NCBI GenBank assembly: GCA_021399395.1
Contig: JAAFKJ010000026.1
Coordinates: 1-46,223, forward strand
Reading direction: 5' to 3'
Source: Candidatus Heimdallarchaeota archaeon
Lineage (GTDB): Archaea > Asgardarchaeota > Heimdallarchaeia > Heimdallarchaeales > Heimdallarchaeaceae
Length of the DNA: 46,223 nt
Program-made: the position numbers and the translations under genes
Shown here: positions 9,999-37,292 of the stretch, piece after piece
Layout: the number at the start of each line of letters is the position of its first letter
Numbering within the stretch: the stretch's first letter is position 1
The notes under the pieces: generated by a model
Told to the model about the DNA's origin: nothing
The model's input: only the letters and a program-made list of their open reading frames with translations
The model's database searches: none

Positions 9999-10745
9999 TT
10001 AATGAACAAAACTAATTTCCTTTGATTCTTCAATGGTTACTGTCAATTCTTCATTCTCATTATAAAGTATAAGAAGTCCATCATTTCCAATACCCTTACA
10101 CTTATAGGTTTTTGAATTGAAGATGTGTTTCTTTGAATGATTCAGTAGGTTAGTATTATAATCTGAAACAAGATTGGAAATCTGATCGAACATCACTTCT
10201 TCTAGATAGTGGAAAAGGTTTTCTGACAGTTTTTGTCTTAACTCATTTAAGTTAAGCTCAAGATTCAAAGCTTCGAACAAACTAGTTGCTTTAATTTCCT
10301 TTACATCAGCTAAATCTTCTTTAGATGAATTGACATTAAGACCTATCCCAATTAAAAGATGATTCCTACTTTTAGTTAAGATTTCAAGTAGAATGCCACC
10401 AATTTTTTGGTTCTCCAAGTAAATGTCATTTGGCCATTTTATTTCAACATCTATACCACAGAATTCTTTGAGCGTTTTTAGAATGCTCAGAGCTACAGCA
10501 TAATGAATAAATCTCATCTTTTTTGGCTCTAGTAACTCATCAATGACAAATACATACGTTCCATAAAATCCTCCTTTAGGAGAACACCATGTTGAATCAT
10601 CTCTTCCTCTACCAATTGTTTGTTTTTCTGCGAGAATGAGTAGTGGAGTATCTTGGTTCTCACTAATGTGATCCAATACAACATCCATAGTTGATGAAAC
10701 AGAATTATACCTTATAATCCGTAACTTCTCATTATCAAAATTCAC
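9999..10745 (-). CDS. birA: Biotin--protein ligase (no HTH domain)
   Basis: SSTMD, QTIGRGR...W.SP.GG, IKWPNDI, KIGGIL, IGIGLNV; GTG start at 10745 avoids overlap with the divergent gene. Confidence 0.88.
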   Translation of the reverse strand: MNFDNEKLRIIRYNSVSSTMDVVLDHISENQDTPLLILAEKQTIGRGRDDSTWCSPKGGFYGTYVFVIDELLEPKKMRFIHYAVALSILKTLKEFCGIDVEIKWPNDIYLENQKIGGILLEILTKSRNHLLIGIGLNVNSSKEDLADVKEIKATSLFEALNLELNLNELRQKLSENLFHYLEEVMFDQISNLVSDYNTNLLNHSKKHIFNSKTYKCKGIGNDGLLILYNENEELTVTIEESKEISFVH

Positions 10746-10847
10746 AATAAACACTCTACAGCTGATGATTGATATATCTATGCCATGTGCTTTAAAATTT
10801 TTTAGGATACAAGGAAAAGCTATTTTTATAAGACAATTAAAGGTATT

Positions 10848-12427: not shown

Positions 12428-13936
12428 CTATTTTTTATTGTGACCTTGATGTTTTTCAAGTCTATTTATCTCTCTCCATCTACTCTTTTTCTTAGATATC
12501 TTAGTGAGATTTTTATGTACAAGCTTCTTGTTCCCATTAAGAAAACTATCAGTTGTGATTAATGCGGCGAGTTTCAGTTTCTGATGTTGGTCGATCAATT
12601 TCTTCATTCGATTTTCATTTAAGAACAAGTTTGTAATCTCACCCTCTCGAAATTCTGGTGACTTTAGAATTGCTTTGTGCAGATAAATGTTAGTAATAAC
12701 CCCATCTATCTTTAATTCCTTCAACATATTTAGTGATTTTTCAATAGTTTTTTCTCTAGTTGTGCTTTTAACAACTAGCTTACCAACTAGAGAATCATAC
12801 TTGTTTGGAACCAAATAGTTTGGATAGATGAAAGTGTCGAATCGAACATTTTCTTCTACTGGAACTGTGAGATTTGTAATTATACCTGTTTGTGGATAGA
12901 AACCATTGAATGGATTTTCAGCATTTATTCGAAATTCTATAACATGACCATCAAAGATTACTTCTTCTTGTGTGTAGCTCAGCACTTCATTATTAGCGAT
13001 TCTTAATTGCTCAATGACAAGATCTATTCCCGTAATCATTTCGGTTACTGGATGTTCAACTTGGATTCTTGAGTTGATTTCATTGAAGAACAATTGATTG
13101 TTTTTCCAGAGAAACTCTACTGTTCCAATATTTGTATAGGATAAAGATTTAACTAGTGAACAAACCTTCTGGCCAAGGCTATCTATAATCTCTTTTGAGA
13201 GGAAGGAAGGTGCTTCTTCTATAATTTTTTGATGAGCACGTTGGATTGAACACTCTCTATCACCAAGATGTATGATGTTATCGTGATTGTCAGCTAAGAA
13301 CTGTATTTCAATATGTCTGGGACCTTCCAAGTACTTCTCAAGATATACGGCATTATCACCGAATATTTTTTCTGCAACGGACTGGCATTCAATAAAACTT
13401 CTTTCCAAATCTTCATTCTTTTTAACAACCTCTATTCCTCTTCCTCCCGCTCCATATACTGCTTTAATGATAACGGGATAACCTATAGTATCTGCTGCTT
13501 TTTCAGCTTCAGAAATAGAATATATTACACTAGAAGAACCGGGGATAACTTGAAGACCAATTTCTTTTGCACTTTTTTTTGCTTCAAATTTATTGCTCAG
13601 TCTTTTTAGAACAGATGCTTTAGGTCCAACAAAAATCAGATCATTCTTTTCTACTTGTACTGCAAAATTTGCATTTTCACTAAGAAATCCGTAACCTGGA
13701 TGAATACCATCAGATTGAGATTGGATAGCAATATCTATGATTTTTTCAATATTCAGATAAGTCTCTTGAACTGAACCATTTCCTAAACAGAATGCTTCAT
13801 CTGCCATTTTGACATGAAGTGAAGATGTGTCAATATCAGAGAAGATAGCAACTGTTTGGATATTTAAAAATCGGCATGCTCTTATTATTCTTACAGCAAT
13901 TTCTCCACGATTAGCTATAAGGATTTTTTTAAGCAT
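12428..13936 (-). CDS. accC: Biotin carboxylase subunit, copy 1
   Basis: ILIANRGEIAVR, IHPGYGFLSEN, GAGGRG, RHIEIQ, RECSIQR, RIQVEHPVTE, RINAE, YDSL. Confidence 0.92.
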   Translation of the reverse strand: MLKKILIANRGEIAVRIIRACRFLNIQTVAIFSDIDTSSLHVKMADEAFCLGNGSVQETYLNIEKIIDIAIQSQSDGIHPGYGFLSENANFAVQVEKNDLIFVGPKASVLKRLSNKFEAKKSAKEIGLQVIPGSSSVIYSISEAEKAADTIGYPVIIKAVYGAGGRGIEVVKKNEDLERSFIECQSVAEKIFGDNAVYLEKYLEGPRHIEIQFLADNHDNIIHLGDRECSIQRAHQKIIEEAPSFLSKEIIDSLGQKVCSLVKSLSYTNIGTVEFLWKNNQLFFNEINSRIQVEHPVTEMITGIDLVIEQLRIANNEVLSYTQEEVIFDGHVIEFRINAENPFNGFYPQTGIITNLTVPVEENVRFDTFIYPNYLVPNKYDSLVGKLVVKSTTREKTIEKSLNMLKELKIDGVITNIYLHKAILKSPEFREGEITNLFLNENRMKKLIDQHQKLKLAALITTDSFLNGNKKLVHKNLTKISKKKSRWREINRLEKHQGHNKK

Positions 13937-14106: not shown

Positions 14107-15684
14107 ATGTATCAAAGACCTGAGAATCTAAATGAGATTCAAGAAAATAATATATTTAGTACTCTTCATGATAGAAGGAGAAGGAGTAAAGAGGGAGGAG
14201 GTAAAAAGCGAATTGAGAATCAACACAAGAAAGGAAAATTAACTGCTCGTGAAAGGATTGAGCTATTGGTTGATGAAAATTCATTTAACGAAATAGATTC
14301 ATTTGTAACTCACCAGTCTACAAAATTTGATATGGCAGGCACTAAACCTTATGGTGATGGTGTTGTTACTGGTCATGCGAAAATCTCAGGCAGAACTATT
14401 TACGTTTATAGTCAAGATTTTACAGTTTTTGGTGGGAGTCTAGGAAGAGCTCAAGCAACAAAAATATGCAAAGTGATGGATCTCGCAATTAAAACTGGAA
14501 ATCCTATAATTGGTTTGTTAGATTCTGGTGGTGCTAGAATACAAGAAGGAGTGGCTTCTCTAGCTGGTTATGGAGATATCTTTTACAGAAATACACAAGC
14601 ATCTGGTGTTATTCCGCAGATTTCTGTTATCTTAGGACCATGTGCAGGTGGTGCTGTCTACTCTCCTGCCTTAACTGACTTTGTTCTCATGAACAAAGAG
14701 AATTCATTTATGTTTGTTACAGGTCCAGAAGTAGTTAAGGCTGTAACTGGTGAGGAAATTTCTTTCTATGATCTAGGAGGAAGTAATGTTCATAGTAGTA
14801 TAACTGGAGTATGCCATCTAGTTGGAGAAACTGAAGAAGATACATTAGATTTAGTTAGAAAATTAATGGCTTATCTTCCATCAAATAACCTAAATGATAC
14901 TCCTTCAGATCAGCATCTGCTTGATGTAAATACTCAGCAGAATTTAAGAGAACTCATTCCCGCAGAAGAAGATGAACCTTATGATATGAAAAGCATCTTA
15001 GGGATTATAGTTGATTCAGATAGTTTCCTTGAGCTACAAGAAGATTGGGCAAAGAATATAATAATAGGATTTTCTCGATTGAATGGTAGCACAGTTGGTA
15101 TAGTAGCAAACCAACCCTTGTATCTGGGAGGAGCTATTGATTTTAATGCGGCTGATAAAGCATCAAGATTCATAAGATTTTGTGATTCATTTAATATTCC
15201 GATTCTAACATTCGTTGATGTGCCAGGATTCCTTCCTGGAATAAAGCAAGAACATGAAGGAATTATAAGACACGGCGCAAAACTTCTATTTGCCTATTCA
15301 GAAGCTACTGTTCCGAAGATTTCTGTGATTGTTCGAAAAGCCTATGGGGGGGCTTACATTGTAATGAGTTCCAAACATTTGGGGACTGATGTAAACTTAG
15401 CTTGGCCTACAGCTCAGATAGCTGTAATGGGATCCGAAGGGGCATGTAGGATACTCTATCGCAGTAAATTGATAGGGGTTGATAATCCAGAACAAATCTT
15501 AAAAGAATTCACTGAAAAATTCAAGGAAGAATTCGCTAATCCTTACCAAGCAGCTGAATTAGGTTATGTTGACAAAGTCATTTTTCCAGAGGAGACGAGA
15601 AACGAAATAATTGTCTCTCTCAGTATTTTGAGGAATAAAAGAGAACAAACACCCAGGAGGAAACATGGAATTTTTCCAGTTTAG
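14107..15684 (+). CDS. pccB: Acyl-CoA carboxylase carboxyltransferase subunit, copy 2
   Basis: Same motif set and same length (525 aa) as copy 1; ends 9 nt before the megasynthase start. Confidence 0.92.
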   Translation: MYQRPENLNEIQENNIFSTLHDRRRRSKEGGGKKRIENQHKKGKLTARERIELLVDENSFNEIDSFVTHQSTKFDMAGTKPYGDGVVTGHAKISGRTIYVYSQDFTVFGGSLGRAQATKICKVMDLAIKTGNPIIGLLDSGGARIQEGVASLAGYGDIFYRNTQASGVIPQISVILGPCAGGAVYSPALTDFVLMNKENSFMFVTGPEVVKAVTGEEISFYDLGGSNVHSSITGVCHLVGETEEDTLDLVRKLMAYLPSNNLNDTPSDQHLLDVNTQQNLRELIPAEEDEPYDMKSILGIIVDSDSFLELQEDWAKNIIIGFSRLNGSTVGIVANQPLYLGGAIDFNAADKASRFIRFCDSFNIPILTFVDVPGFLPGIKQEHEGIIRHGAKLLFAYSEATVPKISVIVRKAYGGAYIVMSSKHLGTDVNLAWPTAQIAVMGSEGACRILYRSKLIGVDNPEQILKEFTEKFKEEFANPYQAAELGYVDKVIFPEETRNEIIVSLSILRNKREQTPRRKHGIFPV

Positions 15685-15693
15685 GTGATTTGA

Positions 15694-18600
15694 ATGAAAA
15701 CAAGAAGACAAATAATAAACGAGATAGACCCAACTAGAATCATTTGGGGATATTCTCCTAAAGGTATAAGCAATCCACAATTATCTATTGAACTTTCCCA
15801 GAAAGGTGGAGTAGGTCTAGTAGATCTTGAAGGGTTAGATGAACAATCAATTTCAAACATTTTAGAAACTTGTAGTAAAAAAATTCCAAAAGAAAATATT
15901 TGGGGTATAAAACTTTCAGATGTTTCTCAGATTGAAGTGGTAAATAAGATGGAGCATATTCCTATTTTGATAATTCCTAAAAAAATCGAAATAGAGCAGT
16001 TAATGAGTCTAACTTGTGAGTATGATTGGCTTATTGCCGAAGTACGTAATGTAAGTGAAGCACAAGAGAAAACTGAATGGGCTGATTTCTTCCTTGTGAA
16101 AGGTTTTGAATCTGGAGGAAGTATCGGTGAAAAGTCATCTTTTATTCTAATTCAAGAATTTAACGAAGTAGGTTACCCATTCATTATACAAGGTGGAATC
16201 GGTGTTTATAACATAATCAGTGCTCTAATTGGTGGTGCTTTAGGAGTAGTACTTGAAGAACAACTTTTACTACTTCCTGAATGTCCTCTTACAGCTGAAA
16301 CTAAAAAATATCTTGCTTCTCTTGATGAAAATGACACATACATCATCGGTGAAAGTTTTGATAGAAAATTTAGAATAACGGGAAAGATTGCAAACAAATG
16401 GATAAGAGAATTCAAAACAATCGAAAAAACTACAACACAAGATAACTTTCAAGAACTCTCTCAAAAGATAGAGGAAGTTTCTAGAACATCTGCTTTTCTT
16501 GCAGATCAGGAAATAAAAAATTCTTTTATTCCTCTTGGTGTAGGATTGAGGTTTGCAAGTTTTATATCAGACAAATTCGGTGACTTAACCGCTTTCCTGA
16601 GCGGTGTTAAACAGATTATAAGAACCCAAATGGTAAATCTTTCAGACAATTGGTCATTTTCAGAAGAAAACGAATTTGCTATAAGTCTTGGGATCAAACT
16701 TCCAATTATCCAGGGACCAATGGCAAACATAACTGATTCAGCTGATTTTGCTTTACAGGTTTTTAATGAGGGTGCACTTCCAGTTTTAGCCTTCGGAGGA
16801 TTGTTGAAAGAAGAAGCAGAAATTTTATTCAAAGAATTACATGAGAAGTATCCAAAAAGTGCTCCTTATGCTGGAGGAATCATCGGTTTAGAAGTCATGA
16901 AAGAAAGACGAGACGCGCATATCTCATTGATTCAAGAAAACAAAACACCATTATGTTTGGTAGCAGCAGGATCAATACAGTTAGCATCAAGAATTCAGAA
17001 AGCTGGGACAAAAGTTATACTTCACACACCTGCTTTATCCTTCTTCAAAGATGCGATTCAAAATAAAATTGAATATTTGATTTTAGAAGGAAGCGAATGT
17101 GGAGGACACATTGGAATATTAACTTCATTCACTCTTTGGGAATCAATAATTCAGTATGTTGAAAGAGAGAAGAGTAATATCTCTGACAAATTAAAGATTG
17201 TATTTGCTGGAGGGATAAGTGATGATAGAAGTACAGCTATGCTAGCTGGAATGGTATCAAATCATCTTGATTATATCTCCCCAGGAATTCAAATGGGGAC
17301 TGCTTACCTACTTACTGAAGAAATTGTTAAGTGCAAAGCTTTAACCTCAATATATCAAGAACATGTTCTAAATTCTTCTGAAACAAAAGTGATAGGAACA
17401 ACAGTAAATACCAGAGCTAGAGCTATTCCTTCTGAGTTTGTTGAAACGACATTGAAACTAGAATTGGAAAGAATCAGAGAAGGTATGTCTATCCATGATA
17501 GAAAGAAAGTATATGAGAAAGACAATTTAGGCGCTTTACGAATTGCAGGTAAAGCTGAAATTTGGAATGAGAAGTATAAACCTGGAGGAGCTTCTACCCA
17601 ATTTGTTTCAGCAAGCAAGAAGATTCAAGAGAGTAAAGGCTGTTATATGGCAGGCGAGCTTATAGGTCTTAAAAGAAACATTCTGAGAATTAGAGACTTA
17701 CATCATGATGTTGTTAAGTCAGGAAAAATTTATGCCACGCAACAAATTGCTGAACTTGAAAAGATTCATCTCGATGCAGTGACTTCAGATGTCCAGATCA
17801 AAGAGTCTATTTCACTTCCTATAAAGAATAGAGTAGCAATAGTCGGGATGGGATGTATTCTTCCAGATGCTGAAAATATTAGCCAATTCTGGACCAATAT
17901 TATACAGAAAAAATATTCAATCACTGAAATCTCTGACGAAAGATGGAAAGCCTCACTGCATTTTGATGAAGATAAAACAGCTGAGAACAAAACCTATTCA
18001 AAGATTGGTTCATTTATCAAAGAATACAATTTTGATTCAATTAGATATCGCATTCCACCAAAAATAGCTGAAAGAATGGATGATGTTCAAAAATGGTCAT
18101 TAGATTCAGCGAGACAAGCTCTAGAAGATGCTGGAATTCCGACTGATGGCAAATTAAAATTACCTATTGCAGTAATTGTGGGAAACTCTTTGGGGGGTGA
18201 AATTCAACGAAATACCAACAAGTTATTCTTTGTACCAGAATTCATTGAAGAAATAAAAACAAACATAGTATTTCAAGAATTAACTGAAGAAAAACAAAAG
18301 AATATGATCAACCATCTATTAGATTTTTCAAAAAAGCACTATCCATCTATTACTGAAGATTCGATGCCAGGTGAATTATCAAATATAATTGCTGGAAGAA
18401 TAGCAAATGTGTTCAATTTGATAGGTAAATCTATGACAACAGATGCTGCTTGTGCATCTAGTGTGGCAGCGATTGATACAGCTGTAAATTCATTACTCTC
18501 GGGGGAAATTAATGTTGTTTTAACAGGAGGAGCTGATAGATCTATGGATGTTGCTACCTATGTTAAATTCAGTAAAATTGGTGCTTTATCTGGGACAGGA

Positions 18601-21600
18601 ACTAGACCTTTTGATGAAAATGCAGATGGATTTGTTATGGGCGAAGGAGCTGGATTTATTGTCCTAAAGCGACTGGAAGATGCACTGACTGATGGTAATA
18701 AGATTTACGCAGTAATTTCTTCTATCGGTTCATCTTCTGATGGTAAAGGAAAGGGAATAACTGCACCAAATCCAGAAGGTCAAAAACGAGCTATAGAAAG
18801 AGCAATGGAAAAAGCGCAAATTGATACAAATGAAGTTGATTACATTGAAGCACATGGTACTTCAACAGTAGTTGGGGATGCAGTTGAACTTCAAGTTCTA
18901 GAGGGAATTTTTAAAGACAGAACAAGTGATCACAAATTAAATGTGAGTTCAATAAAGAGTCAAATAGGTCATCTAAAGAGTGCATCTGGTATTGCATCAA
19001 TAATTAAAGCTTCATTGGCACTTTATCATAAGAAACTACCTCCATCAATAAATGTGGAAAAACCAAATCCAAATATTGATTGGAATAATTCTAAGTTAAG
19101 AATAAACACAGAAGTTTCAGAGTGGAACTCCTCTTCATCTGTTGTAGCCAGAGTTGGTGTATCTGCATTTGGCTTTGGTGGTGCTAATTACCATGCTATA
19201 TTGGAAGAATTTAATCCAGCAAAAATACAATATGAAAAGAAACCACAATTATCAATATCTGAAAATATCCAAGAGGAAATTGACCAATCACAAATTTCTC
19301 TTCAGAGCATAAAACCCAAACTATGTTACATGTTTACTGGTCAGGGAAGTCAATATCTTGGAATGGCTAAACAGCTATATGAAAACTCAGAAATTGTTAA
19401 GGAATACTTTGAAAAAGCTGAACAAATCTGGTATGGTTATTACACTTATAGCTTCAAAGAAATTGTTTTTGGTTCAGAAAAACTCTCTAATGAATCAAAT
19501 AAGAAGAGACTAACTGATACAAAGTTTACCCAACCAGCGATTTTCGTTGTAGATGTCTCTATTGCTAGCTTGTTAGCAGAAGAAGGAATCGAACCAAATA
19601 TAGTCGCAGGCCATAGTTTGGGTGAGTATGCGGCTTTAGTTATAGCAGGAGCACTTTCTTTCGAAGATGGGTTAAAAGCAGTCATTGAACGTGGAAGATC
19701 TATGAGTCGAGCTGGGAATTCTGTACCAGGTGCAATGGCAGCTATACTTGCACCGATTAACCAAGTTCATGAAATCGTGAAAGGAGTGAAAAATTGTTAT
19801 GTCACTGTCGCAAATTACAACTCTAAAAACCAAACAGTTGTTTCTGGTGAAATAGAAGGAATTGAGCAAGTATTAGAAATTTCTAAACAGAAAGGAATTA
19901 CTGCTAAGCGATTAAATGTATCAACTGCATTTCATTCAAAGATTGTTAAATCTGTTGAAGAAGAGATGGAAAAAGTACTTTCTAGAATAGAATTTAATGA
20001 ACCAAAGATCCCAGTTTATAGTAATGCTACAGGAAAAGTTTATCCACCAAAACCAGAAGAAATAAGAAAATTACTTGTTCAACAAATTAGTTCATCAGTT
20101 CTTTGGGTTAACGAAATTCAAAATATCTACAATGCAGGAGCGAGATTCTTTGTAGAGATAGGTCCGAAAAAGGCTTTATTCTCATTTGTTAAAGATATTC
20201 TGCAAGATAAAACAGATATCTCGGCATTTACTACATTGATACCAAAACAAAACGAAATTGAAACAGTAGAAACTACGGTGAATCAGATACGACAGTTTAT
20301 TGATCCTGCTTCTCTAGCTGATTTAGACCCACAATTCAAGAAAATTAAAACAGAACAAGAAATAGTATTTCCTGGAGAAATAGCTGTTTCACCAGATTCT
20401 GATTTTCAAAGTTTTGTTAGAAATAATAGTAATTATCTTGAAAATATTTTGAAATCTGGGTATGAACTTTATTCTAATTATTTAGGAGAAAATGAAGAAG
20501 TCAAATCAGCTAAATCTGTAGCTCCAGTTAGACATCAGCTGATAGGAGTGACAGGAGTTGGAGTTGGTTTTCCAGGAAAAAGTAGAAATGTTTTTGATGA
20601 TGGGAATATCGATGCAATTCTCTCAGGGGAGAATCTCATTGATTCAATAAGAGAAGATATTCGACAAAACATGTTAGACAAGAATATCAATCGTCTTGTT
20701 AAATCTCCAGAAGGAATAGCTTCATTTGAAGAAATTGATGAATTAACAAAAGTAATTAATTTAGCTGGTCAATTGGGGAATTTCGATCCTGTTGGAGATT
20801 TTAAATTAGATGAAAAACTTTTGAGTTCTCTTGACATAACCTTTCAATTAGCAATCTGTGCAGGTTTAGAAGCTTTAAATAATGCAGGTATCCCATTAGT
20901 GAAATCTTCTTTCAGAACTTCTACTGGAAAAGTTCTAGAAGGCGACTGGGCATTACCTGAACCTCTTCAAGATGAAACTGGTATAATATTTGCTTCTGCT
21001 TTTCCAGGATATGATAATCTTGTCAAGGAAATACAAGAACAAACTAACTCAGATAATGATAAGAAATTTAGCAGAAATTTCTTATTCAAAATTTTATCAA
21101 TGGGTCATTCTCAATTTGCTCAGTTGATTAAAGCGAAAGGACCTAATACACAGATTAATGCTGCATGTGCCTCTACTACTCAAGCGATTGGTATTGCAGA
21201 AGACTGGATTCGAATTGGTCGATGTAATAGAGTTATTGTAATAGCAGCTGATGATGCATCTAGTGAAAATTTGCTCCCATGGCTTGGATCTGGATTTCTA
21301 GCTGCTGGAGGTGTAACAACTGAAGAAAAAGTTGAAAATGCCGCGCTCCCATTTGGTAAAAACAGACATGGTCTGATAATAGGATCTGCTGCAGCTGCTC
21401 TGATACTTGAGAATGAAGATGCCTATAATATGAGAGGAGTTAAACCCATTGTTGACCTGATTGGTTCATCATTTTTGAATAGTGGATTTCATGGTTCAAG
21501 ATTGGATGTTCAACATATTTCCAAAGCTTTCCAAAACTTTGTGGAAAAGATTGAAGAGCAATACCATATTCCAAGAAAGAGTTTAGCAGAAGAAGGAATG

Positions 21601-24600
21601 TTTGTTTCTCATGAAACTTATACTCCAGCAAGAGGAGGAAGTGCTGAATCTGAAATTGAAGCACTGAAAAGCGTTTTTGGAAAAGACGCTTGCAAAATTA
21701 CTATAGTAAATACAAAAGGTTTTACTGGACATGCAATGGGAGCAGGAATTGAAGAATGTGTTGCTATTAAATCAATGGAGAAAGGTAGAATTCCGCCTAT
21801 AGCAAATATTGCTAAAATAGATCCTTTGTTCTCTGAATTACGGTTTTCTGAAGGAGAAAATCGTAGGGTAAAATACGCAATTCGATTAGCAGCTGGATTT
21901 GGATCTCAAGTAGCATTCACTGCTTTTAGGCTTAATACCTTTGAAGATAGGTATGATTTGATTCTTCATGATGAATGGTTATCTGGATTAGGTGGTAATA
22001 TGGGTAGAACTTTTTTGGATGGAAGAGTCTTGAAAATGACAACAAAATCTAAATTGGAGATTTCCACATCAGCAAAATCCAAATCCCATGATATCGCTAA
22101 GAACTTAGTATCTACAGATATTTTACCAAGTGTTATCTCAATAATCTCAGAAATCACTGGATATGAGACAAATCTGATCGAAGCTGAAATGCATCTAGAA
22201 GAAGATCTAGGAATTGACACAGTTAAACAAGCTGAGATTTTTGGAATTCTTCGGGAAAAGTGGGATTTAGAATTAGATGATACAGTAAGTCTTGCAGAAT
22301 TTACAACACCTCAAAAAATTGCTATATATGTTCAAAGCAATGTTGGTGAGATAGGTTCTTCTGAACCAGTAGACCCCCCTAATTTGATGGAAACTTCTGA
22401 AGATTTGAACAGAAAAATCAGAGAGGTTATATCAGAAACCACAGGATATGAACAAAATCTAATAGAATTTGATATGGATCTAGAGGAAGATCTCGGTATA
22501 GATACAATAAAACAAGCTGAAATCTTTGGAGATATAAGAGAGATATATGATCTCCCCATTGATGAATCAATAAGTTTAGCAGAATTCAGAACAATCAATG
22601 ACATAGCCGGGTATGTCCACCGATATGTTGGAGATGTACCATCTATTACTTCTGAAATTTCAGAAAGTGTTGAAGAATTACCTAGAACTGAGAAGGAGCA
22701 AGACCTTGAAGACACTGTCAGAATTGATAAACTGATTACGGTTCCTATTCCTTTGGATAAGAGCAAAGCTGATAAAGTAAACTTAACTGAGCTTTCTACT
22801 TTAGTAATTGATATCAATTCCTCATTAGGTGAGGAGTTAGCAAGTTCTCTAAAAGAAAGAAAAGCGAATTATAAGATCTGTAAGTTGTTAAAAGAAAAAT
22901 CGGAATTAGAAGAAACAAATTTTGATCTATTTATCCTGTTGTTACCAGATCCAATCTCAGAACCTGGTTTGATTGACCAAGAAATCTACACTAAGATATT
23001 TACATTGTTTCAGTCACTAGAACTGAACTCAAATCAGAGAATTATTGCAGTATCAAAAGAAAATTATTTTGGTTTAAGAAAAGATGCAAATCCTATCTCT
23101 GGAGGAATTTCTGGTTTTGTGAAAACAATAGGTATAGAGTTTGAAATGGCCTATAAGCACATTTATTCTGAGAACATAAAATACATTATTCAAGAGTTGG
23201 AATATTGGGATACAAATGTTGAAATTGCATATGAAAAGAAAAATAGATTTACACTCGCAAATCTGGATATAAGTGACTATCTTACTCAATCTTCAAAAAT
23301 TCATGTTAAAGGCAGCGATTTACTACTTGTTACTGGGGGAGGTAGAGGAATTACCTTCAAATGTTTAGAAGCACTCTGCACAATTGTAAAATCCAAGGTA
23401 GCTATTTTTGGTATAGAAGACATTTCTAATGTTGATTCGGAAGCTCTTCTCTTATCTCCTGAAGAATTAGAGGAAAGAAAGCAGAAACTGATAGAAGAAC
23501 TGAAAGAAACTGAAGAGAAAGTCACTCCAGTTCTTATTGACAGACATTGGAATAATTTCTTATTCGGACTTGAAGTAGTAAGGAATCTTGAAATTTTAAG
23601 AAAGAAGAAGATAAAAGTCGAATATAGAAGAGTTGATGTTACAAATACAAAAGATGTAGAAGAAGCTATAAGAGATATTGAAAGTCATTTCGAGACCTCT
23701 GTTAGTCACATCATTCATGGAGCCGGTCTAGAGGAATCCAAGTCATTTAAAAAGAAGAAACTTGACTTTTCGAGTCTCATTGTTTCAGTAAAGGTTGAAG
23801 GTATTTGGAATATACTCAACTCAATTGATACAAAGAAACTGAAACGAGTAGTATGTTTTACATCAATTGCAGGTAGATATGGTAATAGAGGACAAGTAGA
23901 CTATTCATTCGCTAATGGGTACCTTTCAAGGCTTTGTTGGAAGTTGAATCAACAAGGAGTTTCAGCTGTAGCCTGTGATTGGTCAGCATGGGGAGGTGTA
24001 GGAATGGCAACAAGAGGGTCTATTATGGATATATTAACCTCTCAAGGTATAAATCCTATTCCTGTGCAAGAAGGTACAGAGAGTTTTGTCAAACTCTTCT
24101 TAAACACAATTGGAGATGAAGTAATCGTATCATGTGGTCTTGGACCTTTTGAAAAGATGTCTGAAATCAAATCAAAAATCAAAGAAAGTAAATATCCCTT
24201 AATTGAGAGTTTGGAGTATTATGATTCAACTTTCTTTACCAGAAAAGCAATTAATTCAGAGAATGACCTATATCTAAATGATCATCAAATACAACAAACA
24301 CCGATATTTCCAGGTGTGATGGGATTAGAATTTTTTGCAGAAACTTTTGAAATACTATCATCACAAAAACCTGTTAGTTTTTCAAACGTAGAATTTAATA
24401 CTGCTCTAAAGATTCAACAATCTCAAACAAAGGAGATTTATGTTGAATACAAATCCGATATAGGGAAAATGAAATTAAAATCAGATTTCATCGCAAAGAT
24501 TGATCCAAGTAAAAGAAGAGAAATTGAGCATTTTACAATAAATGTTGATGTTTCTACAAGGAGAAAGAAAGCAAAGAAATCAGAAAATGAAATTCGCGAA

Positions 24601-25773
24601 TCTGATATCAATCTCTTATCAAAAGAGGATATATATTCGTTCTTCTTCCATGGAGAGAGTTTTCAAGTATTAGAGAAATTAATTAATCTAGATGGAAAGA
24701 AAGCTATTTCGCAGATAGAAATTCCTGACAAAAATCTTTTCTCTGATAAAAGGAGTAAAACTACTCTGAACCCTCTTGCAATTGAAGCAGCATTACAGAC
24801 AGCGGGATTATATGACTACATTGTCAATAGCAAAACTTCTTTGCCATCAAAAATAGAGACAATAACCTTCTACAATAATAAAAAACCAAAATATATTGTT
24901 TCAATATTCACTGGAATTAATACAACTCATAGTACATTTGATGTAGAAATATTAGATGAAAAAAGAAACATAATCGCTAAACTAGACGGCTTGGGGATGA
25001 TACATACTCAACTCAACTTCAAGGAAGAATCAGAAATTAAAGATAAACTTCAGGAAACTTTCCGATACTGGGAAATCACTAACTCACTAAACCATGATAA
25101 TTTCAGAATAATTCCAGTCCGAATAGTAGCTTCTCTTCTTTCAACTAATCCCAAAACTGTTTTGTCTTCCTTGACATCTAAAGAAAAAGAACGATTTGAT
25201 ACATTCAAGAACGAGAAACGAAGAATTGAGTATCTTTCTGGTGTCATTGCATCTAAGGAACTCTATTCTCTTCTAGTTAATAAAGAGAACAAACCTAAAG
25301 AAATTGAGATTAGAAAAGAAAAGAAAGGTCGACCATACTTTTATGATCTTAAGAAGGATGAACCAAGTAATTTACATCTTTCAATAACTCATTCTGGAGA
25401 ATTTGCTATTGCAGCTGTTGGTCAATCACCTATTGGAATTGATATCGAAAAAATAGAAGAAAGAAGTGAGTCTTTCTACAAAGAAGCTTTCACAGAAAAA
25501 GAAAGAAATGAGATCTCATCAGATGCTGAAAAAGGAACAATATATTGGACAATTAAAGAAGCAATAACTAAAGCACTTGGTGAAGGTTTACACCTTAATC
25601 TACATGATATCGAAATTTCAGAAAACCAAGAAAAATCCTCTTACACGATTGGATTCTCTTCTAAGGTAGCTGATACTGTACCGTATGATGCTGATTCATT
25701 TGAGATAACGAACAAGAGTTTCCAGAATTATACGATTACATATTGTGAGATTCGACAGGAGGATAAAAAATGA
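15694..25773 (+). CDS. Single-chain type I FAS/PKS megasynthase: ER*-ER-KS-AT-KS-ACP-ACP-KR-DH-PPTase
   Basis: FabK/PfaD-like IIQGPMA, EGSECGGH, AGGI, GIQMGT; KS1 DAACASS/EAHGTST/GHLK; AT GQGSQ/GHSLG/AFHS; KS2 NAACAS/SHETYT/GHAMG; two LEEDLGIDT.KQAE ACPs; KR VTGGGRGI/HGAG/GQVDYSFAN; DH DHQIQQTPIFPG; Sfp-type PPTase GRP/SITHS/GIDIE/WTIKEAITKALG; GGTGA SD at 15684-15688. Confidence 0.93.
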   Translation: MKTRRQIINEIDPTRIIWGYSPKGISNPQLSIELSQKGGVGLVDLEGLDEQSISNILETCSKKIPKENIWGIKLSDVSQIEVVNKMEHIPILIIPKKIEIEQLMSLTCEYDWLIAEVRNVSEAQEKTEWADFFLVKGFESGGSIGEKSSFILIQEFNEVGYPFIIQGGIGVYNIISALIGGALGVVLEEQLLLLPECPLTAETKKYLASLDENDTYIIGESFDRKFRITGKIANKWIREFKTIEKTTTQDNFQELSQKIEEVSRTSAFLADQEIKNSFIPLGVGLRFASFISDKFGDLTAFLSGVKQIIRTQMVNLSDNWSFSEENEFAISLGIKLPIIQGPMANITDSADFALQVFNEGALPVLAFGGLLKEEAEILFKELHEKYPKSAPYAGGIIGLEVMKERRDAHISLIQENKTPLCLVAAGSIQLASRIQKAGTKVILHTPALSFFKDAIQNKIEYLILEGSECGGHIGILTSFTLWESIIQYVEREKSNISDKLKIVFAGGISDDRSTAMLAGMVSNHLDYISPGIQMGTAYLLTEEIVKCKALTSIYQEHVLNSSETKVIGTTVNTRARAIPSEFVETTLKLELERIREGMSIHDRKKVYEKDNLGALRIAGKAEIWNEKYKPGGASTQFVSASKKIQESKGCYMAGELIGLKRNILRIRDLHHDVVKSGKIYATQQIAELEKIHLDAVTSDVQIKESISLPIKNRVAIVGMGCILPDAENISQFWTNIIQKKYSITEISDERWKASLHFDEDKTAENKTYSKIGSFIKEYNFDSIRYRIPPKIAERMDDVQKWSLDSARQALEDAGIPTDGKLKLPIAVIVGNSLGGEIQRNTNKLFFVPEFIEEIKTNIVFQELTEEKQKNMINHLLDFSKKHYPSITEDSMPGELSNIIAGRIANVFNLIGKSMTTDAACASSVAAIDTAVNSLLSGEINVVLTGGADRSMDVATYVKFSKIGALSGTGTRPFDENADGFVMGEGAGFIVLKRLEDALTDGNKIYAVISSIGSSSDGKGKGITAPNPEGQKRAIERAMEKAQIDTNEVDYIEAHGTSTVVGDAVELQVLEGIFKDRTSDHKLNVSSIKSQIGHLKSASGIASIIKASLALYHKKLPPSINVEKPNPNIDWNNSKLRINTEVSEWNSSSSVVARVGVSAFGFGGANYHAILEEFNPAKIQYEKKPQLSISENIQEEIDQSQISLQSIKPKLCYMFTGQGSQYLGMAKQLYENSEIVKEYFEKAEQIWYGYYTYSFKEIVFGSEKLSNESNKKRLTDTKFTQPAIFVVDVSIASLLAEEGIEPNIVAGHSLGEYAALVIAGALSFEDGLKAVIERGRSMSRAGNSVPGAMAAILAPINQVHEIVKGVKNCYVTVANYNSKNQTVVSGEIEGIEQVLEISKQKGITAKRLNVSTAFHSKIVKSVEEEMEKVLSRIEFNEPKIPVYSNATGKVYPPKPEEIRKLLVQQISSSVLWVNEIQNIYNAGARFFVEIGPKKALFSFVKDILQDKTDISAFTTLIPKQNEIETVETTVNQIRQFIDPASLADLDPQFKKIKTEQEIVFPGEIAVSPDSDFQSFVRNNSNYLENILKSGYELYSNYLGENEEVKSAKSVAPVRHQLIGVTGVGVGFPGKSRNVFDDGNIDAILSGENLIDSIREDIRQNMLDKNINRLVKSPEGIASFEEIDELTKVINLAGQLGNFDPVGDFKLDEKLLSSLDITFQLAICAGLEALNNAGIPLVKSSFRTSTGKVLEGDWALPEPLQDETGIIFASAFPGYDNLVKEIQEQTNSDNDKKFSRNFLFKILSMGHSQFAQLIKAKGPNTQINAACASTTQAIGIAEDWIRIGRCNRVIVIAADDASSENLLPWLGSGFLAAGGVTTEEKVENAALPFGKNRHGLIIGSAAAALILENEDAYNMRGVKPIVDLIGSSFLNSGFHGSRLDVQHISKAFQNFVEKIEEQYHIPRKSLAEEGMFVSHETYTPARGGSAESEIEALKSVFGKDACKITIVNTKGFTGHAMGAGIEECVAIKSMEKGRIPPIANIAKIDPLFSELRFSEGENRRVKYAIRLAAGFGSQVAFTAFRLNTFEDRYDLILHDEWLSGLGGNMGRTFLDGRVLKMTTKSKLEISTSAKSKSHDIAKNLVSTDILPSVISIISEITGYETNLIEAEMHLEEDLGIDTVKQAEIFGILREKWDLELDDTVSLAEFTTPQKIAIYVQSNVGEIGSSEPVDPPNLMETSEDLNRKIREVISETTGYEQNLIEFDMDLEEDLGIDTIKQAEIFGDIREIYDLPIDESISLAEFRTINDIAGYVHRYVGDVPSITSEISESVEELPRTEKEQDLEDTVRIDKLITVPIPLDKSKADKVNLTELSTLVIDINSSLGEELASSLKERKANYKICKLLKEKSELEETNFDLFILLLPDPISEPGLIDQEIYTKIFTLFQSLELNSNQRIIAVSKENYFGLRKDANPISGGISGFVKTIGIEFEMAYKHIYSENIKYIIQELEYWDTNVEIAYEKKNRFTLANLDISDYLTQSSKIHVKGSDLLLVTGGGRGITFKCLEALCTIVKSKVAIFGIEDISNVDSEALLLSPEELEERKQKLIEELKETEEKVTPVLIDRHWNNFLFGLEVVRNLEILRKKKIKVEYRRVDVTNTKDVEEAIRDIESHFETSVSHIIHGAGLEESKSFKKKKLDFSSLIVSVKVEGIWNILNSIDTKKLKRVVCFTSIAGRYGNRGQVDYSFANGYLSRLCWKLNQQGVSAVACDWSAWGGVGMATRGSIMDILTSQGINPIPVQEGTESFVKLFLNTIGDEVIVSCGLGPFEKMSEIKSKIKESKYPLIESLEYYDSTFFTRKAINSENDLYLNDHQIQQTPIFPGVMGLEFFAETFEILSSQKPVSFSNVEFNTALKIQQSQTKEIYVEYKSDIGKMKLKSDFIAKIDPSKRREIEHFTINVDVSTRRKKAKKSENEIRESDINLLSKEDIYSFFFHGESFQVLEKLINLDGKKAISQIEIPDKNLFSDKRSKTTLNPLAIEAALQTAGLYDYIVNSKTSLPSKIETITFYNNKKPKYIVSIFTGINTTHSTFDVEILDEKRNIIAKLDGLGMIHTQLNFKEESEIKDKLQETFRYWEITNSLNHDNFRIIPVRIVASLLSTNPKTVLSSLTSKEKERFDTFKNEKRRIEYLSGVIASKELYSLLVNKENKPKEIEIRKEKKGRPYFYDLKKDEPSNLHLSITHSGEFAIAAVGQSPIGIDIEKIEERSESFYKEAFTEKERNEISSDAEKGTIYWTIKEAITKALGEGLHLNLHDIEISENQEKSSYTIGFSSKVADTVPYDADSFEITNKSFQNYTITYCEIRQEDKK

Positions 25774-26534
25774 AAATAGAGCACTCTGATATTAATTTCA
25801 GAGAAGAAACAATTAATGGAGTTCTTTATCTTCCAGAAGATAAGAATCCTTCCCCTTTGATAGTTCATCTAAACGGGATGCCAGGGTTAGAACCAGAGAA
25901 AGAAGGTGAAAGATTTGCTAGAGACATGGTGGATAATGGGTTCGCTTACTATGCTTTCGATTATACGGGAGTTCGAAATAGTACAGGAACATTTGAGTAT
26001 TATTATTCTCAAGAAAATATCAATCAAGTAATCTCCTATCTTGTCCATCATCCTAAAATTGATCCTACACAGATTGCTCTAATAGGAGAAAGTTTTGGGG
26101 GAGCGATGGCTATATCACACACAGCGCGGGATCCAAGAGTTAAGTGTTTAGCCATAAGATCTCCTGTATATGATACAGATAAAGTTGCAAAGTTGAAAAT
26201 CTTTGACGGTTTATCCCAACTATGGAAAAGAAGTAAACAGATGAGGTTTCCAGAGGTTCATTTGAAGAAATGGTTCAAAGAACAAACATCTCAATACAAT
26301 CCCTCGAAACTCATTTCAAAAATCAGCTGCCCAATCCGATTTATAATAGGAACAAGTGATGAGATCCTAGCTGTAGACCAAATAGAGGAATTTTATGGAA
26401 AACTCTCCCCAGATATTGACAAAGAAATGAAAGTAGTTGAAAAAGCCAATCATAATTTCTCGAACGAGAAACACTTTGAAATTATGAAAACATATGTAAT
26501 AGACTTTTTCAGAGAAGTACTCACAGCGAATTAA
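25770..26534 (+). CDS. Alpha/beta hydrolase (candidate thioesterase)
   Basis: GESFGG nucleophile elbow, GTSD acid, ANHNF His; ATGA overlap with the megasynthase stop; GGAGG SD. Confidence 0.85.
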   Translation: MKIEHSDINFREETINGVLYLPEDKNPSPLIVHLNGMPGLEPEKEGERFARDMVDNGFAYYAFDYTGVRNSTGTFEYYYSQENINQVISYLVHHPKIDPTQIALIGESFGGAMAISHTARDPRVKCLAIRSPVYDTDKVAKLKIFDGLSQLWKRSKQMRFPEVHLKKWFKEQTSQYNPSKLISKISCPIRFIIGTSDEILAVDQIEEFYGKLSPDIDKEMKVVEKANHNFSNEKHFEIMKTYVIDFFREVLTAN

Positions 26535-27010
26535 GGTTGAATAATTAGAAGATGCTGATCTTGCACAACATTATCATTTTCTTTCACTGAAATTTTGAGA
26601 ATTTTCCCTGAACTGGGGGCAAAGATCCTATTTCTCATTTTCATAGCTTCAAGTATCAGAAGTTCTTGATCTTTTGATACCTCTTCTCCTTCTGTCACTA
26701 AAATTTTAGTTATCTTTCCTGGGATTGGAGCTGAGATTTTTATGTCTTTTTTTTCAATTTCACTTGATTTGGTGCTTAATACAGGTATGTAAGGTTTGAT
26801 TGTAAATTGCGTCTTCTCTCCATTGACAAAAAACTCATCGTTTGAAACTTCCACTGTGAAAGTGTGCCCATCAACATCTACCTTGTAAATAGAATTTATA
26901 CCTTGTTTGACTTCAGCTGAGAAAACTTCTTCATCTATGCAAATGTCACCGTTAGGAAGAATTTCAACAATATATTCTCTATCTCTAAACATGACTTTTT
27001 TCTTAGACAA
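26531..27010 (-). CDS. accB: Biotin carboxyl carrier protein
   Basis: APIPGKI..V..G..V, ILEAMKM.N biotinylation motif; TTG start at 27010 with AGGTG SD just after the BC2 stop (alternative ATG at 26992). Confidence 0.9.
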   Translation of the reverse strand: MSKKKVMFRDREYIVEILPNGDICIDEEVFSAEVKQGINSIYKVDVDGHTFTVEVSNDEFFVNGEKTQFTIKPYIPVLSTKSSEIEKKDIKISAPIPGKITKILVTEGEEVSKDQELLILEAMKMRNRIFAPSSGKILKISVKENDNVVQDQHLLIIQP

Positions 27011-27024
27011 ATATGACACCTGTG

Positions 27025-28527
27025 TTATCGATAACCATTTTGCTGTTCTAATTTGTTTTGTTCTCTCCATCTATTATAATCTTCTCTACTTCTTTGAATA
27101 TTGGAGATATCATAATCTTGTTTCTGCTTGTGAATTGTATTGGCAATAAGTAAAGCTACAAGTTTTAGTTTTTCGTAGTGATTGAGTATCTGGTTTATTT
27201 TTGTTCTTTCCAAAAAATCAGTTGTTATTTGTCTATGTTGAAACTCTTCTGTTTCAATAATTGCTTTATGAAGAGATATATTTGTGGTTAATCCTGATAT
27301 AGCTAGTTCATTTAAAGCTAAGCGGGATTTTTGTATTGCATCCTCTCTATTTTCTCCTCTAATAATTAGTTTACCAATGAGAGAGTCATATTGGTTTGGG
27401 AGATTGTAATTGGGATAAATGAAGGTGTCAAATCTTACATCATTCCCACCAGGTATATTCAAACTTAGAATTTTACCAGTTTGAGGATAAAATGCCTTTA
27501 ATGGGTCTTCAGCATTAATCCTAAATTCTAATGCATGACCTGAGAACTTGATATCTTTTTGAGAATAAGATAGTTCTTCATTGTTAGCTACTCTCAACTG
27601 TTGAACTACCAGATCTATTCCGGTAATCATCTCTGTGACAGGATGCTCTACTTGAATTCTAGGATTTATCTCGTTGAAATACAATTTTCTATCTTTCCAA
27701 AGAAATTCAGCTGTTCCAGCGTTTCTATATGAGAGTTTTTTAGCTAAATTACAAATCTTTTCACCAAGACTATTTCTCCTTCTTGCTGATATGAACGAAG
27801 GAGCTTCTTCGATAATCTTCTGATAGGATCTTTGAATTGAACATTCTCGATCTCCAATATGGATAACATTACCAAAGTTATCTGCTAAAAATTGAATCTC
27901 GACATGTCTAGGGGCATGAATGTATTTCTCAATGAAAACCTCACTGCTTCCAAAGAATTTGCTAGCTATTGTTTGACAACCCATCAGACTTATTTCTAAA
28001 GCATCTGGATTTTCAACAATTTCCATCCCTCTTCCCCCTCCACCGTAAGCTGCCTTGATGATAATTGGATAACCTATCTTATTGGTTATTTGCTCAGCTT
28101 CAGAAACTGAATTAATGTAACCTGATGAACCTGGAACTGTCAGAATTCCTGCTTCCTTAGCCATCTTCTTGGCTTCAATTTTATTTCCTAATCTGTGAAG
28201 AATTGAAGGAGACGGACCAACAAAAATCAATCCATTTTTTTCAACCTCTTCTGCGAAAATTGCGCTCTCACTAAGAAATCCATATCCTGGATGAATGGCA
28301 TCAGACTGAGATTTAAGAGCTATCTCAATGATTTTTTCAATATTTAGATATGTGTCTTGTACATCCCCACTACCTAAGCAGAATGCTTCATCCGCCATCT
28401 TAATATGGAGAGAAGTAGAATCAATATCAGAAAAAATAGCTACCGTTTTGAAATTAAGAAGTCGACAGGCTCTTATGATTCTGATAGCTATCTCTCCGCG
28501 GTTAGCTATAAGGATAGTACTGAGCAT
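27025..28527 (-). CDS. accC: Biotin carboxylase subunit, copy 2
   Basis: ILIANRGEIAIR, IHPGYGFLSE, GGGGRGM, NPRIQVEHPVTE, YDSLIGK. Confidence 0.92.
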   Translation of the reverse strand: MLSTILIANRGEIAIRIIRACRLLNFKTVAIFSDIDSTSLHIKMADEAFCLGSGDVQDTYLNIEKIIEIALKSQSDAIHPGYGFLSESAIFAEEVEKNGLIFVGPSPSILHRLGNKIEAKKMAKEAGILTVPGSSGYINSVSEAEQITNKIGYPIIIKAAYGGGGRGMEIVENPDALEISLMGCQTIASKFFGSSEVFIEKYIHAPRHVEIQFLADNFGNVIHIGDRECSIQRSYQKIIEEAPSFISARRRNSLGEKICNLAKKLSYRNAGTAEFLWKDRKLYFNEINPRIQVEHPVTEMITGIDLVVQQLRVANNEELSYSQKDIKFSGHALEFRINAEDPLKAFYPQTGKILSLNIPGGNDVRFDTFIYPNYNLPNQYDSLIGKLIIRGENREDAIQKSRLALNELAISGLTTNISLHKAIIETEEFQHRQITTDFLERTKINQILNHYEKLKLVALLIANTIHKQKQDYDISNIQRSREDYNRWREQNKLEQQNGYR

Positions 28528-37176: not shown

Positions 37177-37292
37177 TAATGTAATAATTGCTAAGAGGGT
37201 TCACAGATATCCAAATTATTCCTTGAGCTTATTTCATGTGTTATGGAATAGATTTAAAACAGTCTTTTTTCCCTTTATTTCAAGGTGTAATT

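Follow-up and report, generated by a model that had tools for sequence, protein, structure and literature searches.

A self-contained megasynthase locus with threonine-bearing carriers in an Asgard archaeon: a candidate fatty-acyl synthase

The contig JAAFKJ010000026.1 (assembly GCA_021399395.1) of Candidatus Heimdallarchaeota archaeon, analyzed here over positions 1 to 46,223 (the window), carries a megasynthase encoded by a single uninterrupted open reading frame (ORF) with an ATG start and no internal stop. Pfam models place its domains in the order ER*-ER-KS1-AT-KS2-ACP2-KR-DH-PPTase (Table 1), in which ER stands for an enoyl reductase and ER* for an ER-like domain preceding it, KS for ketosynthase, AT for acyltransferase, ACP2 for two tandem acyl carrier proteins (ACPs), KR for ketoreductase, DH for dehydratase, and PPTase for phosphopantetheinyl transferase. 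Pfam was run on the whole protein as well as on nine pieces of it, and NCBIfam models were also scored; E-values reach down to 1e-77, which excludes chance. The same map and order had been proposed in an initial annotation made from the sequence by a model and are borne out by the hidden Markov models, with the nucleotide boundaries agreeing within a few tens of residues and with the ER, DH, and PPTase domains all confirmed by Pfam. The best full-length NCBIfam model is PfaA (TIGR02813), which matches at 854.9 bits, under its cut-off of 1010.1. The Pfam match of KS1 covers residues 712–1122 (217 + 135 bits) and is followed by a KS C-terminal extension to residue 1186, the AT scores 238.9 bits with the FabD model (TIGR00128), below the cut-off of 260.9, and the two PP-binding (PF00550) stretches are matched at 53.5 bits. 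The PPTase is two-lobed and Sfp/HetI-like, aligning to Sfp (1qr0/4mrt) with an identical eight-residue metal-site stretch. The G+C content, approximately 34%, is even across the locus and unchanged over the synthase. A 161-residue ORF on the opposite strand, within the ACP-to-KR stretch, is most likely a chance ORF.

Conservation of the active-site residues was counted over up to 105 homologues, the denominators being the homologues that cover the position. The KS1 Cys is kept in 101/102, the AT Ser, Arg, and His in 100/100, 100/100, and 99/99, the KR Lys, Ser, Tyr, and Asn in 69/70, 70/70, 70/70, and 68/70, and the DH His, Glu, and Gln in 69/70, 63/69 (with Asp in the other 6), and 69/69, respectively, while the His, Asp, Lys, and Glu of the PPTase are kept in 31/31 and its second acidic residue in 30/31. 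The residues singled out by the initial annotation (C920/H1054/H1093, S1308, Y2737, and H2864) are all present and, together with H1414, are invariant in 26 of the 26 aligned full-length homologues. The annotation had also called the architecture unusual, which overstates the case. It had brought out neither the Asgard host, nor the position of the gene in a locus for malonyl-CoA supply, nor the Thr at the attachment site of both carriers. A word-seeded full-length search returned 613 proteins at E ≤ 0.001 among 7996 scored candidates, and the best 120 of these 613 were mapped by BLAST with the nine domain pieces of the window protein; 54 of the 120 listed homologue clusters show exactly the order ER*-ER-KS1-AT-KS2-ACP-KR-DH-PPT, and 5 more show the same order with the DH missed at threshold. 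The architecture is not rare, its named members belonging to Heimdallarchaeaceae, Promethearchaeota/Lokiarchaeum, Hodarchaeota, and the bacterial Desulfomonilaceae (P0089). Of the annotation's own proviso, that it might prove both common and already characterized, the first half holds and the second does not, the core having been catalogued by Shulse and Allen (2011; PMC3098273) among pfa-like clusters as secondary lipid synthases of “Type R” and of “Type S”, to which no product is assigned in the available text of that paper.

Approximately 37 of the 120 listed homologues represent a bacterial form (Desulfobacter, Desulfobacula, Desulfospira, and others) that has a further KS and lacks the PPTase, and the rest are truncated or without the N-terminal reductases. 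In the Desulfobacterales long form (P0098 and relatives) the extra KS sits between ER and KS1. Phe or Tyr occupies the positions of the KS1 residues His1054 and His1093 in 6–7 of these sequences, and one KS of this long form may be noncatalytic. A C-terminal release reductase (PF01073/PF01370), considered for the same form, was ruled out, as PF01073 matches P0098 within the KR (residues 3422–3537) and the protein ends with the DH. The wider family was sampled by a genome-locus search with general KS1 motifs, the 80 resulting loci being a sample and not a taxon census; among them, members without fused reductases were found in the bacterial phyla Elusimicrobiota, Chloroflexota, Actinomycetota, Myxococcota, and Acidobacteriota and, on the archaeal side, in Poseidoniales (Marine Group II) and other Thermoplasmatota. 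A tree of KS1-AT-KS2, built by a quick maximum-likelihood method (82 rows, 1516 columns, LG+G4, unrooted, with support from the Shimodaira–Hasegawa-like approximate likelihood-ratio test, SH-aLRT, only), places the window protein among 14 Asgard sequences that form a clade with full support. Asgard archaea make up two more clades, one of a Kariarchaeaceae type without ER and the other a second Heimdall group, and other phyla fall in separate clades. Some records labeled Bathyarchaeia, Zixibacteria, Salipiger bermudensis, and Enterobacterales (P0043, P0047, L049, and L036) stand in Asgard or Poseidoniales clades or beside a Myxococcota sequence and are probably misbinned contigs of metagenome-assembled genomes (MAGs).

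The feature that sets this family apart lies in its carriers. Both read D-L-G-I-D-T-(V/I)-K-Q-A-E, with ACA as the Thr codon, and the conserved attachment Ser of PF00550 is absent from both, its place being taken by Thr2176 and Thr2271, which phmmer aligns with the Ser that is modified in AcpM and in the PigH carriers. Across the 120 listed homologues, Thr is found in 340 of 347 instances of the motif, the 7 Ser instances being confined to three proteins. The motif occurs in 58 of the 80 genome loci, with Thr in 172 instances and Ser in 2, the latter in L003 alone, and two more loci have a Thr variant outside the search pattern, so that the Thr form is present in 60/80 loci from many phyla; in the other 20 the matches stop short of the carriers. 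When the carrier pair served as query in an exhaustive phmmer search, the number of representatives was 4458 at E ≤ 1e-3, 2279 at 1e-10, and 474 at 1e-30, and the 144 best newly stored matches divide into 89 with Thr only, 49 with Ser only, 1 with both, 3 with no match to the motif, and 2 with Ser and a stray match. The commonest Ser-form version ends in I-K-R-V-E, which we take to be the PfaA carrier motif. Where a carrier match has enough room upstream for KS-AT-KS2, a KS2 signature is present in 26 of 28 cases with the Thr form and in 1 of 6 with the Ser form. Judged from these alignments, the Thr site is a hallmark of the family and is accompanied by KS2 and by a PPTase that is fused or adjacent. 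The Asgard synthase of L003 combines Ser and Thr carriers in a single protein (in the order S, T, S) for which there is one PPTase, which argues that the Thr is a working attachment site and not a dead one. Thr would be the phosphopantetheine attachment residue in this family. A literature search with the three carrier-motif strings, limited to nonsubscription literature, returned no paper, and among the listed matches of a search on phosphopantetheinylation and threonine no title or abstract opening pointed to a Thr attachment site.

The N-terminal part of the chain consists of two similar domains of different standing. The ER carries His472, which is kept in 37 of the 37 homologues covered, while ER* has Ser143 at the equivalent position, where nine different residues occur among homologues and His occurs in 0/38. 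In an AlphaFold2 model, residues 1–700 form one confident body (predicted local distance difference test, pLDDT, 92.2; predicted template-modeling score, pTM, 0.93), with alternating strand/helix units in ER*. The top Foldseek matches of the ER*-ER model are FabK/TM0800, with template-modeling (TM) scores of 0.83–0.88 normalized to the target, and the yeast and Candida fatty acid synthase (FAS) chains appear at ranks 45–48. The ER scores 77.8 bits against a cut-off of 453 for the FabK equivalog model (TIGR03151), while its fold and motifs match, the phmmer alignment to FabK (7l00) retaining the flavin-site and Gly-Gly-His-Ile-Gly stretches. The absence of the catalytic His marks ER* as a pseudo-enzyme, which may serve as the structural partner of ER in an intramolecular pseudo-dimer; FabK itself is dimeric. 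Enoyl reduction is provided for in different ways across the relatives. The Asgard archaea and Desulfobacterota have the fused ER, of the flavin mononucleotide (FMN) type, the ER-less synthase of Poseidoniales (L044) has a FabI-type short-chain dehydrogenase/reductase gene directly upstream, and the ER-less synthases of Chloroploca (L017) and Anaeromyxobacter (L020) have an acyl-CoA dehydrogenase gene in that place. Three unrelated reductase families therefore fill the same step, which argues for full reduction; such nonorthologous replacement is good support for the importance of enoyl reduction, and with it of a reduced acyl chain, in this family.

The second ketosynthase, KS2, aligns (phmmer) with FabF (1ox0) over approximately 320 residues, with Cys1825, His1973, and His2013 falling on the catalytic triad, and these residues are kept in 96/96, 92/92, and 92/92 homologues covered. 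A chain-length factor (CLF, or KS-beta) is defined by the loss of the active-site Cys. Because Cys, His, and His are kept in all homologues covered, KS2 is not a CLF. A complex prediction for KS1 (residues 705–1190) with KS2 (1612–2085) gave a score of 0.73, the best of 3 controls reaching 0.01, and passed a mark that is reached by 116 of 157 solved complexes and by 2 of 215 mismatched pairs. The runs agree in at least 80% of contacts with a partner pLDDT of at least 82, and the predicted interface lies on the strands adjoining both active-site Cys residues. A KS/CLF-like pairing of KS1 with KS2 is therefore plausible on the predicted structure, a heterodimer not being told apart from two homodimers in this way; it has to be noted that the pass may only mirror known structures, because both KS homodimers and KS/CLF heterodimers have been solved.

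The synthase is embedded among genes for acyl-CoA carboxylation (Table 1). It is directly preceded by a carboxyltransferase gene and followed by that of an alpha/beta hydrolase, and the genes for the biotin carboxyl carrier protein (BCCP) and biotin carboxylase lie beyond, on the minus strand and convergent to the synthase-hydrolase pair on the plus strand. The carboxyltransferase is immediately upstream in all four Asgard contigs that have an upstream flank (the window, L001, L003, and L004), and the hydrolase is immediately downstream in all three that have a downstream flank (the window, L001, and L003). The biotin-protein ligase BirA has the same position in L001, L003, and L004, BCCP the same place in L001 and L003, and biotin carboxylase in L001; L003 is the complete chromosome of Ca. 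Heimdallarchaeum aukensis (CP084166). Among the bacteria, the Chloroploca locus (L017) continues downstream with PPTase, carboxyltransferase, biotin carboxylase, and BCCP, and that of Elusimicrobiota (L051) with PPTase and carboxyltransferase; the PPTase is either fused or the next gene, the latter in L044, L017, L051, and L020. The synthase is thus linked to its own malonyl-CoA supply. The hydrolase shows a nucleophile-elbow Ser, an Asp, and a His and is a candidate chain-releasing thioesterase.

Table 1. Coordinates of the megasynthase, its domains, and other features of the window (domain residues are numbered along the megasynthase)
Feature	Position (nt)	Strand	Evidence and remarks
Megasynthase ORF	15694..25773	+	3359 residues (P0001)
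ER*, NMO/FabK-like TIM barrel, putative pseudo-enzyme, residues 1–320	15694..16653	+	Pfam NMO residues 97–251, 40.5 bits (cut-off 28); FabK model 41.8 bits
ER, FMN-type enoyl reductase, residues 325–690; His472	16666..17763	+	Pfam NMO residues 406–587, 55.4 bits; FabK TIGR03151 77.8 bits
KS1, PKS/PfaA-type ketosynthase, residues 712–1186; C920, H1054, H1093	17827..19251	+	Pfam
AT, malonyl-type acyltransferase, residues 1212–1524; S1308, R1333, H1414	19327..20265	+	Pfam residues 1212–1526, 178 bits
KS2, FabF-like, residues 1617–2078; C1825, H1973, H2013	20542..21927	+	Pfam residues 1617–2039, 51.5 + 25.8 bits; FabF TIGR03150 145.5 bits
ACP1, about residues 2145–2213; Thr2176 (codon ACA 22219–22221)	22126..22332	+	Pfam PP-binding
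ACP2, residues 2240–2308; Thr2271 (codon ACA 22504–22506)	22411..22617	+	Pfam PP-binding
KR, residues 2493–2801, catalytic part 2631–2767; K2700, S2724, Y2737, N2741	23170..24096	+	Pfam KR 100 bits; PfaA positions 1943–2253
DH, PKS-type double hot-dog, residues 2848–3101; H2864, E3031, Q3035	24235..24996	+	PKS_DH_N 38 bits, PS-DH 37.5 bits; PfaA positions 2284–2528
PPTase, Sfp-type, residues 3155–3351	25156..25746	+	ACPS 73.1 bits, AASDHPPT_N 31.3 bits
Opposite-strand ORF, 161 residues	22332..22817	-	
Acyl-CoA carboxylase carboxyltransferase	14107..15684	+	Carboxyl_trans 610.7 bits; ends 9 nt before the synthase
Alpha/beta hydrolase, 254 residues	25770..26534	+	Hydrolase_4 59 bits, BAAT_C 35.9 bits; start overlaps the synthase stop by 4 nt
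Biotin carboxyl carrier protein	26531..27070	-	Biotin_lipoyl 62 bits
Biotin carboxylase	27025..28527	-	NF006367 597.6 bits (cut-off 597)
Second carboxyltransferase	10848..12425	+	75% identical to the 14107–15684 copy
Second biotin carboxylase	12428..13936	-	61% identical to the 27025–28527 copy
Biotin-protein ligase BirA	9999..10871	-	TIGR00121 131.9 bits (cut-off 83.1)
Membrane protein, 562 residues	29977..31665		Acyl_transf_3 25.2 bits, below the cut-off of 31
Methylene-tetrahydromethanopterin (H4MPT) dehydrogenase	145..978		283 bits
Asparaginyl-tRNA synthetase (AsnRS)	2282..3631		41 database matches at 68–94% identity
Nre	31682..32929		277.7 + 119.8 bits
Gtr1/RagA-like small GTPase	33045..33629		122.6 bits
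Aldehyde:ferredoxin oxidoreductase	37236..39479		
Arf-family small GTPase	39740..40294		146.6 bits
ORFs of 164–274 residues	1696..2244, 6051..6638, 7182..7676, 42554..43378, 43580..44092		no Pfam match at E ≤ 0.001

Some further observations concern this neighborhood. The second carboxyltransferase and biotin carboxylase genes are inserted between the BirA gene and that of the main carboxyltransferase; this extra pair may be a local duplication or have a second substrate specificity, and L001 is without it. The BirA gene was also considered as an octanoyl/lipoyl transferase, which would have pointed to lipoate synthesis, a reading that is ruled out by its NCBIfam score. In L003 (8001–20541) the synthase appears as two ORFs in different frames (1506 and 2653 residues), 58 nt apart and split after the AT, which is either a real split or a frameshift, and a Csm6 HEPN gene is found just downstream. 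The 562-residue membrane protein lies 1.4 kb beyond the carboxylase genes of the window, and a link between it and the synthase product is possible but unsupported.

In the model proposed here, to which we assign a probability of approximately 0.7, the megasynthase works iteratively and with full reduction as a self-contained type I fatty-acyl synthase and belongs to the Pfa-like (Type R/S) family, its host being a Heimdallarchaeaceae-type Asgard archaeon. The neighboring biotin ligase and acyl-CoA carboxylase (carboxyltransferase, biotin carboxylase, and BCCP) would make malonyl-CoA, while the C-terminal PPTase would convert the two tandem carriers to the holo form in cis, presumably on Thr. 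The AT, for which the FabD model gives 238.9 bits, would load malonyl units, and the PKS-type KS1 and the FabF-type KS2, probably as a KS/CLF-like heterodimer, would carry out the condensations, possibly splitting the work by chain length. Each cycle would be finished by the KR, the DH, and the FMN-type ER, with the inactive ER* packing on the latter, and the finished chain would be released or transferred by the translationally coupled alpha/beta hydrolase. The product is expected to be a saturated or largely saturated fatty acyl chain.

Several points weigh against this model. No thioesterase or reductase release domain was found by Pfam in the synthase chain, and the role of the hydrolase is assigned by position alone, its closest solved structures being generic esterases. 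The presence of an ER does not by itself prove a saturated product, as, by analogy, the polyunsaturated fatty acid (PUFA) synthases have an ER and yet make an unsaturated one. The PfaA score lies below its cut-off, and no member of the subfamily with a known product was found. We know of no precedent for Thr at a carrier attachment site, and unmodified, inactive carriers would be compatible with the sequence. To our knowledge, cultured Asgard archaea have been reported to contain isoprenoid ether lipids only, and the product may therefore be minor, conditional, or nonmembrane. As to origins, an unrooted, outgroup-less quick tree shows nothing on gene donors. Finally, by its architecture and by the phyla of its relatives, if not by the genomes listed in PMC3098273, the window protein is assigned to the Type R/S kind, the core architecture of which was known from that catalogue; what is new is the complete, self-supplied synthase locus in Asgard archaea (and Poseidoniales) and the Thr carrier site.

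The main rival, which we regard as unlikely, is a “secondary lipid” or polyketide synthase that would use its ER in some cycles, as in PUFA and heterocyst-glycolipid synthases, and would thus make a long, partly unsaturated or hydroxylated chain. The retention of the ER function across the relatives by three nonhomologous enzymes speaks against such partial reduction, as does the tight linkage to acyl-CoA carboxylase genes, which recurs in Chloroploca and Elusimicrobiota. Two different KSs could serve different chain lengths under this reading, as in PUFA synthases. The best full-length model is indeed that of PfaA, which is nevertheless matched under its cut-off, and neither PfaB, a PfaC-type KS-CLF, nor a FabA-like DH pair (the DH/isomerase domains of such systems) was found in the synthase or in the other window ORFs of at least 150 residues. 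The nearest carriers outside the family are likewise PfaA-type tandem ACPs (the 49 Ser-only cases among the 144 newly stored representatives), and tandem carriers are, in the available text of PMC3098273, a mark of Pfa synthases.

A second alternative, which we consider very improbable, holds that carriers with Thr in place of Ser cannot be modified and that the protein is an inactive relic or has a role without carrier-bound intermediates. In E. coli ACP, replacement of this Ser by Thr reportedly prevents modification, and it is with the modified Ser of solved carriers that Thr2176 and Thr2271 align. A relic would, in turn, not be expected to retain Thr throughout the listed homologues (340/347 instances) and in 60/80 loci, together with intact catalytic residues in every domain and a PPTase that is always fused or adjacent, nor to keep S, T, and S side by side as in L003.

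That the synthase is bacterial DNA misjoined to an archaeal contig, or was transferred only very recently and lacks an archaeal role, is suggested by its close architectural twins in Desulfomonilaceae and by the bacterial MAG labels of some homologues but is hardly credible, since Asgard-type genes flank the locus on both sides in the 46-kb window at an even G+C, three other Asgard contigs, one of them a complete chromosome, show this layout too, and the protein falls in the 14-sequence Asgard clade with an SH-aLRT of 100. The remainder of the window is archaeal and, more specifically, Asgard-like: it carries genes for two eukaryote-type small GTPases together with those for Nre, methylene-H4MPT dehydrogenase, and an aldehyde:ferredoxin oxidoreductase, which are ordinary archaeal genes that help to place the host. 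All 13 organism-named matches among the 41 of the AsnRS are Heimdallarchaeota/-aceae/-um (12) or “Asgard group” (1). The N-terminus of the Arf-like GTPase has an amphipathic-looking stretch and no Gly at position 2, which speaks against its myristoylation. Two of the five ORFs without a Pfam match also have no NCBIfam match.

The fatty-acyl synthase model bears on an open problem of eukaryogenesis, namely how a membrane of fatty-acid ester lipids arose in a lineage descended from archaea with isoprenoid ether lipids. If it is correct, the closest archaeal relatives of eukaryotes have an ACP-dependent fatty-acid route, contrary to accounts of the “lipid divide”. A 2024 preprint (10.1101/2024.07.05.601840) states, in its available part, that archaea seem to be without FAS I or a complete FAS II and mostly without ACP and ACP synthase, and the accessible portions of a 2026 review (PMC13037920) and a 2019 genome study (PMC6737245) discuss lipid genes of bacterial type in Lokiarchaeales and Marine Group II and name no synthase. 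A search of the literature outside subscription journals and supplements found no paper describing such a synthase in archaea or Asgard archaea in particular, and gene-cluster surveys mention polyketide synthase (PKS) clusters in Asgardarchaeota, in the parts available, only generically. The wider proposition, that a cross-domain megasynthase family uses Thr as its phosphopantetheine attachment residue with dedicated fused or adjacent PPTases and, in addition, gives Asgard archaea with their own malonyl-CoA supply an ACP-dependent fatty-acid route, appears to us evenly poised. Members of the Thr-carrier family occur in Asgard archaea, in Poseidoniales and Thermoplasmatota, and in no fewer than six phyla of bacteria, and the carriers of this family, if indeed modified, would be the first natural O-phosphopantetheinyl-threonine carriers and would extend what is known of the chemistry of a textbook post-translational modification. 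The Thr site would also provide a simple sequence mark separating the family from PUFA synthases. The locus is a clonable candidate, with carriers, PPTase, and ER in one ORF beside a malonyl-CoA supply, and its conservation in several Asgard clades, including complete genomes, makes the question testable.

The synthase can be compared with several known systems. The order of its domains is, as the initial annotation had stated, unlike that of either the animal or the fungal and Corynebacterium-Mycobacterium-Nocardia (CMN) type I FAS. The animal enzyme has the order KS-MAT-DH-ER-KR-ACP-TE, in which MAT is a malonyl/acetyltransferase, TE a thioesterase, and the ER of the medium-chain dehydrogenase/reductase (MDR) kind; here the order differs, the ER is of the NMO type, and a TE domain is absent. 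With the fungal/CMN enzymes the synthase shares the FMN-dependent TIM-barrel ER, whereas the order is entirely different, the KS, AT, and DH match PKS/Pfa models, and the PPTase is Sfp-type. A PPTase fused at a C-terminus is also known from fungal FAS, and the annotation had suggested possible convergence with it on both counts; for a PPTase fused at the C-terminus of an iterative KS-AT-ACP-KR-DH chain, the nearest textbook precedent is the enediyne PKS (PKSE) and not fungal FAS. PKSE is such an iterative chain, with one carrier, a C-terminal fused Sfp-type PPTase by which this carrier is primed, and a polyene product, and it has neither an ER nor a second KS, both of which are present here; enediyne accessory genes were not seen in the window. 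The ER resembles FabK in its fold and in its aligned flavin-site and His motifs and differs from it in its far lower model score and in being fused to the His-less ER* and to the synthase.

Also close are the PUFA synthases (PfaA/PfaD/PfaE), which share the KS-AT...ACPn-KR-DH order, the FMN-type ER of the FabK/PfaD kind, the Sfp-type PPTase, and related tandem carriers and differ in that the window protein falls short of the PfaA cut-off, has a second active KS between the AT and the ACPs, carries Thr in its carriers, and forms one chain. The description of the protein as PfaD, PfaA, a second KS, and PfaE compressed into one chain, given in the initial annotation, fits, with PfaA as the best model, KR and DH matching PfaA, the ER matching FabK, and the PPTase being Sfp/HetI-like. 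There is a close likeness to the Type R/S synthases. Type R, described from Koribacter, Solibacter, Elusimicrobium, and Roseiflexus, consists of one pfaA homologue, KS-MAT-CLF-ACP(3-6)-KR, and a PPTase gene behind it, the two being separated in one case by a gene for acetyl-CoA carboxylase, and Type S, found in Desulfobacterium autotrophicum alone, was suggested to be a core FAS since fabA/fabZ are missing there (PMC3098273, in its available text). That text contains neither “archaea” nor “threonine”, and no paper characterizing Type R was found, judged by titles, in the literature following it up. The window protein has the same order, KS1-AT-KS2-ACP2-KR(-DH), an associated PPTase, here fused, and an adjacent carboxylase gene, as is sometimes the case in Type R/S, and its relatives from Elusimicrobiota, Chloroflexota, and Acidobacteriota cluster with its family. 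It differs from the Type R/S synthases, as far as these are described in the available text of PMC3098273, in that the second KS, termed a CLF there, has an intact Cys-His-His here, and in that ER*, ER, and PPTase are brought together in the same chain, in an archaeal host.

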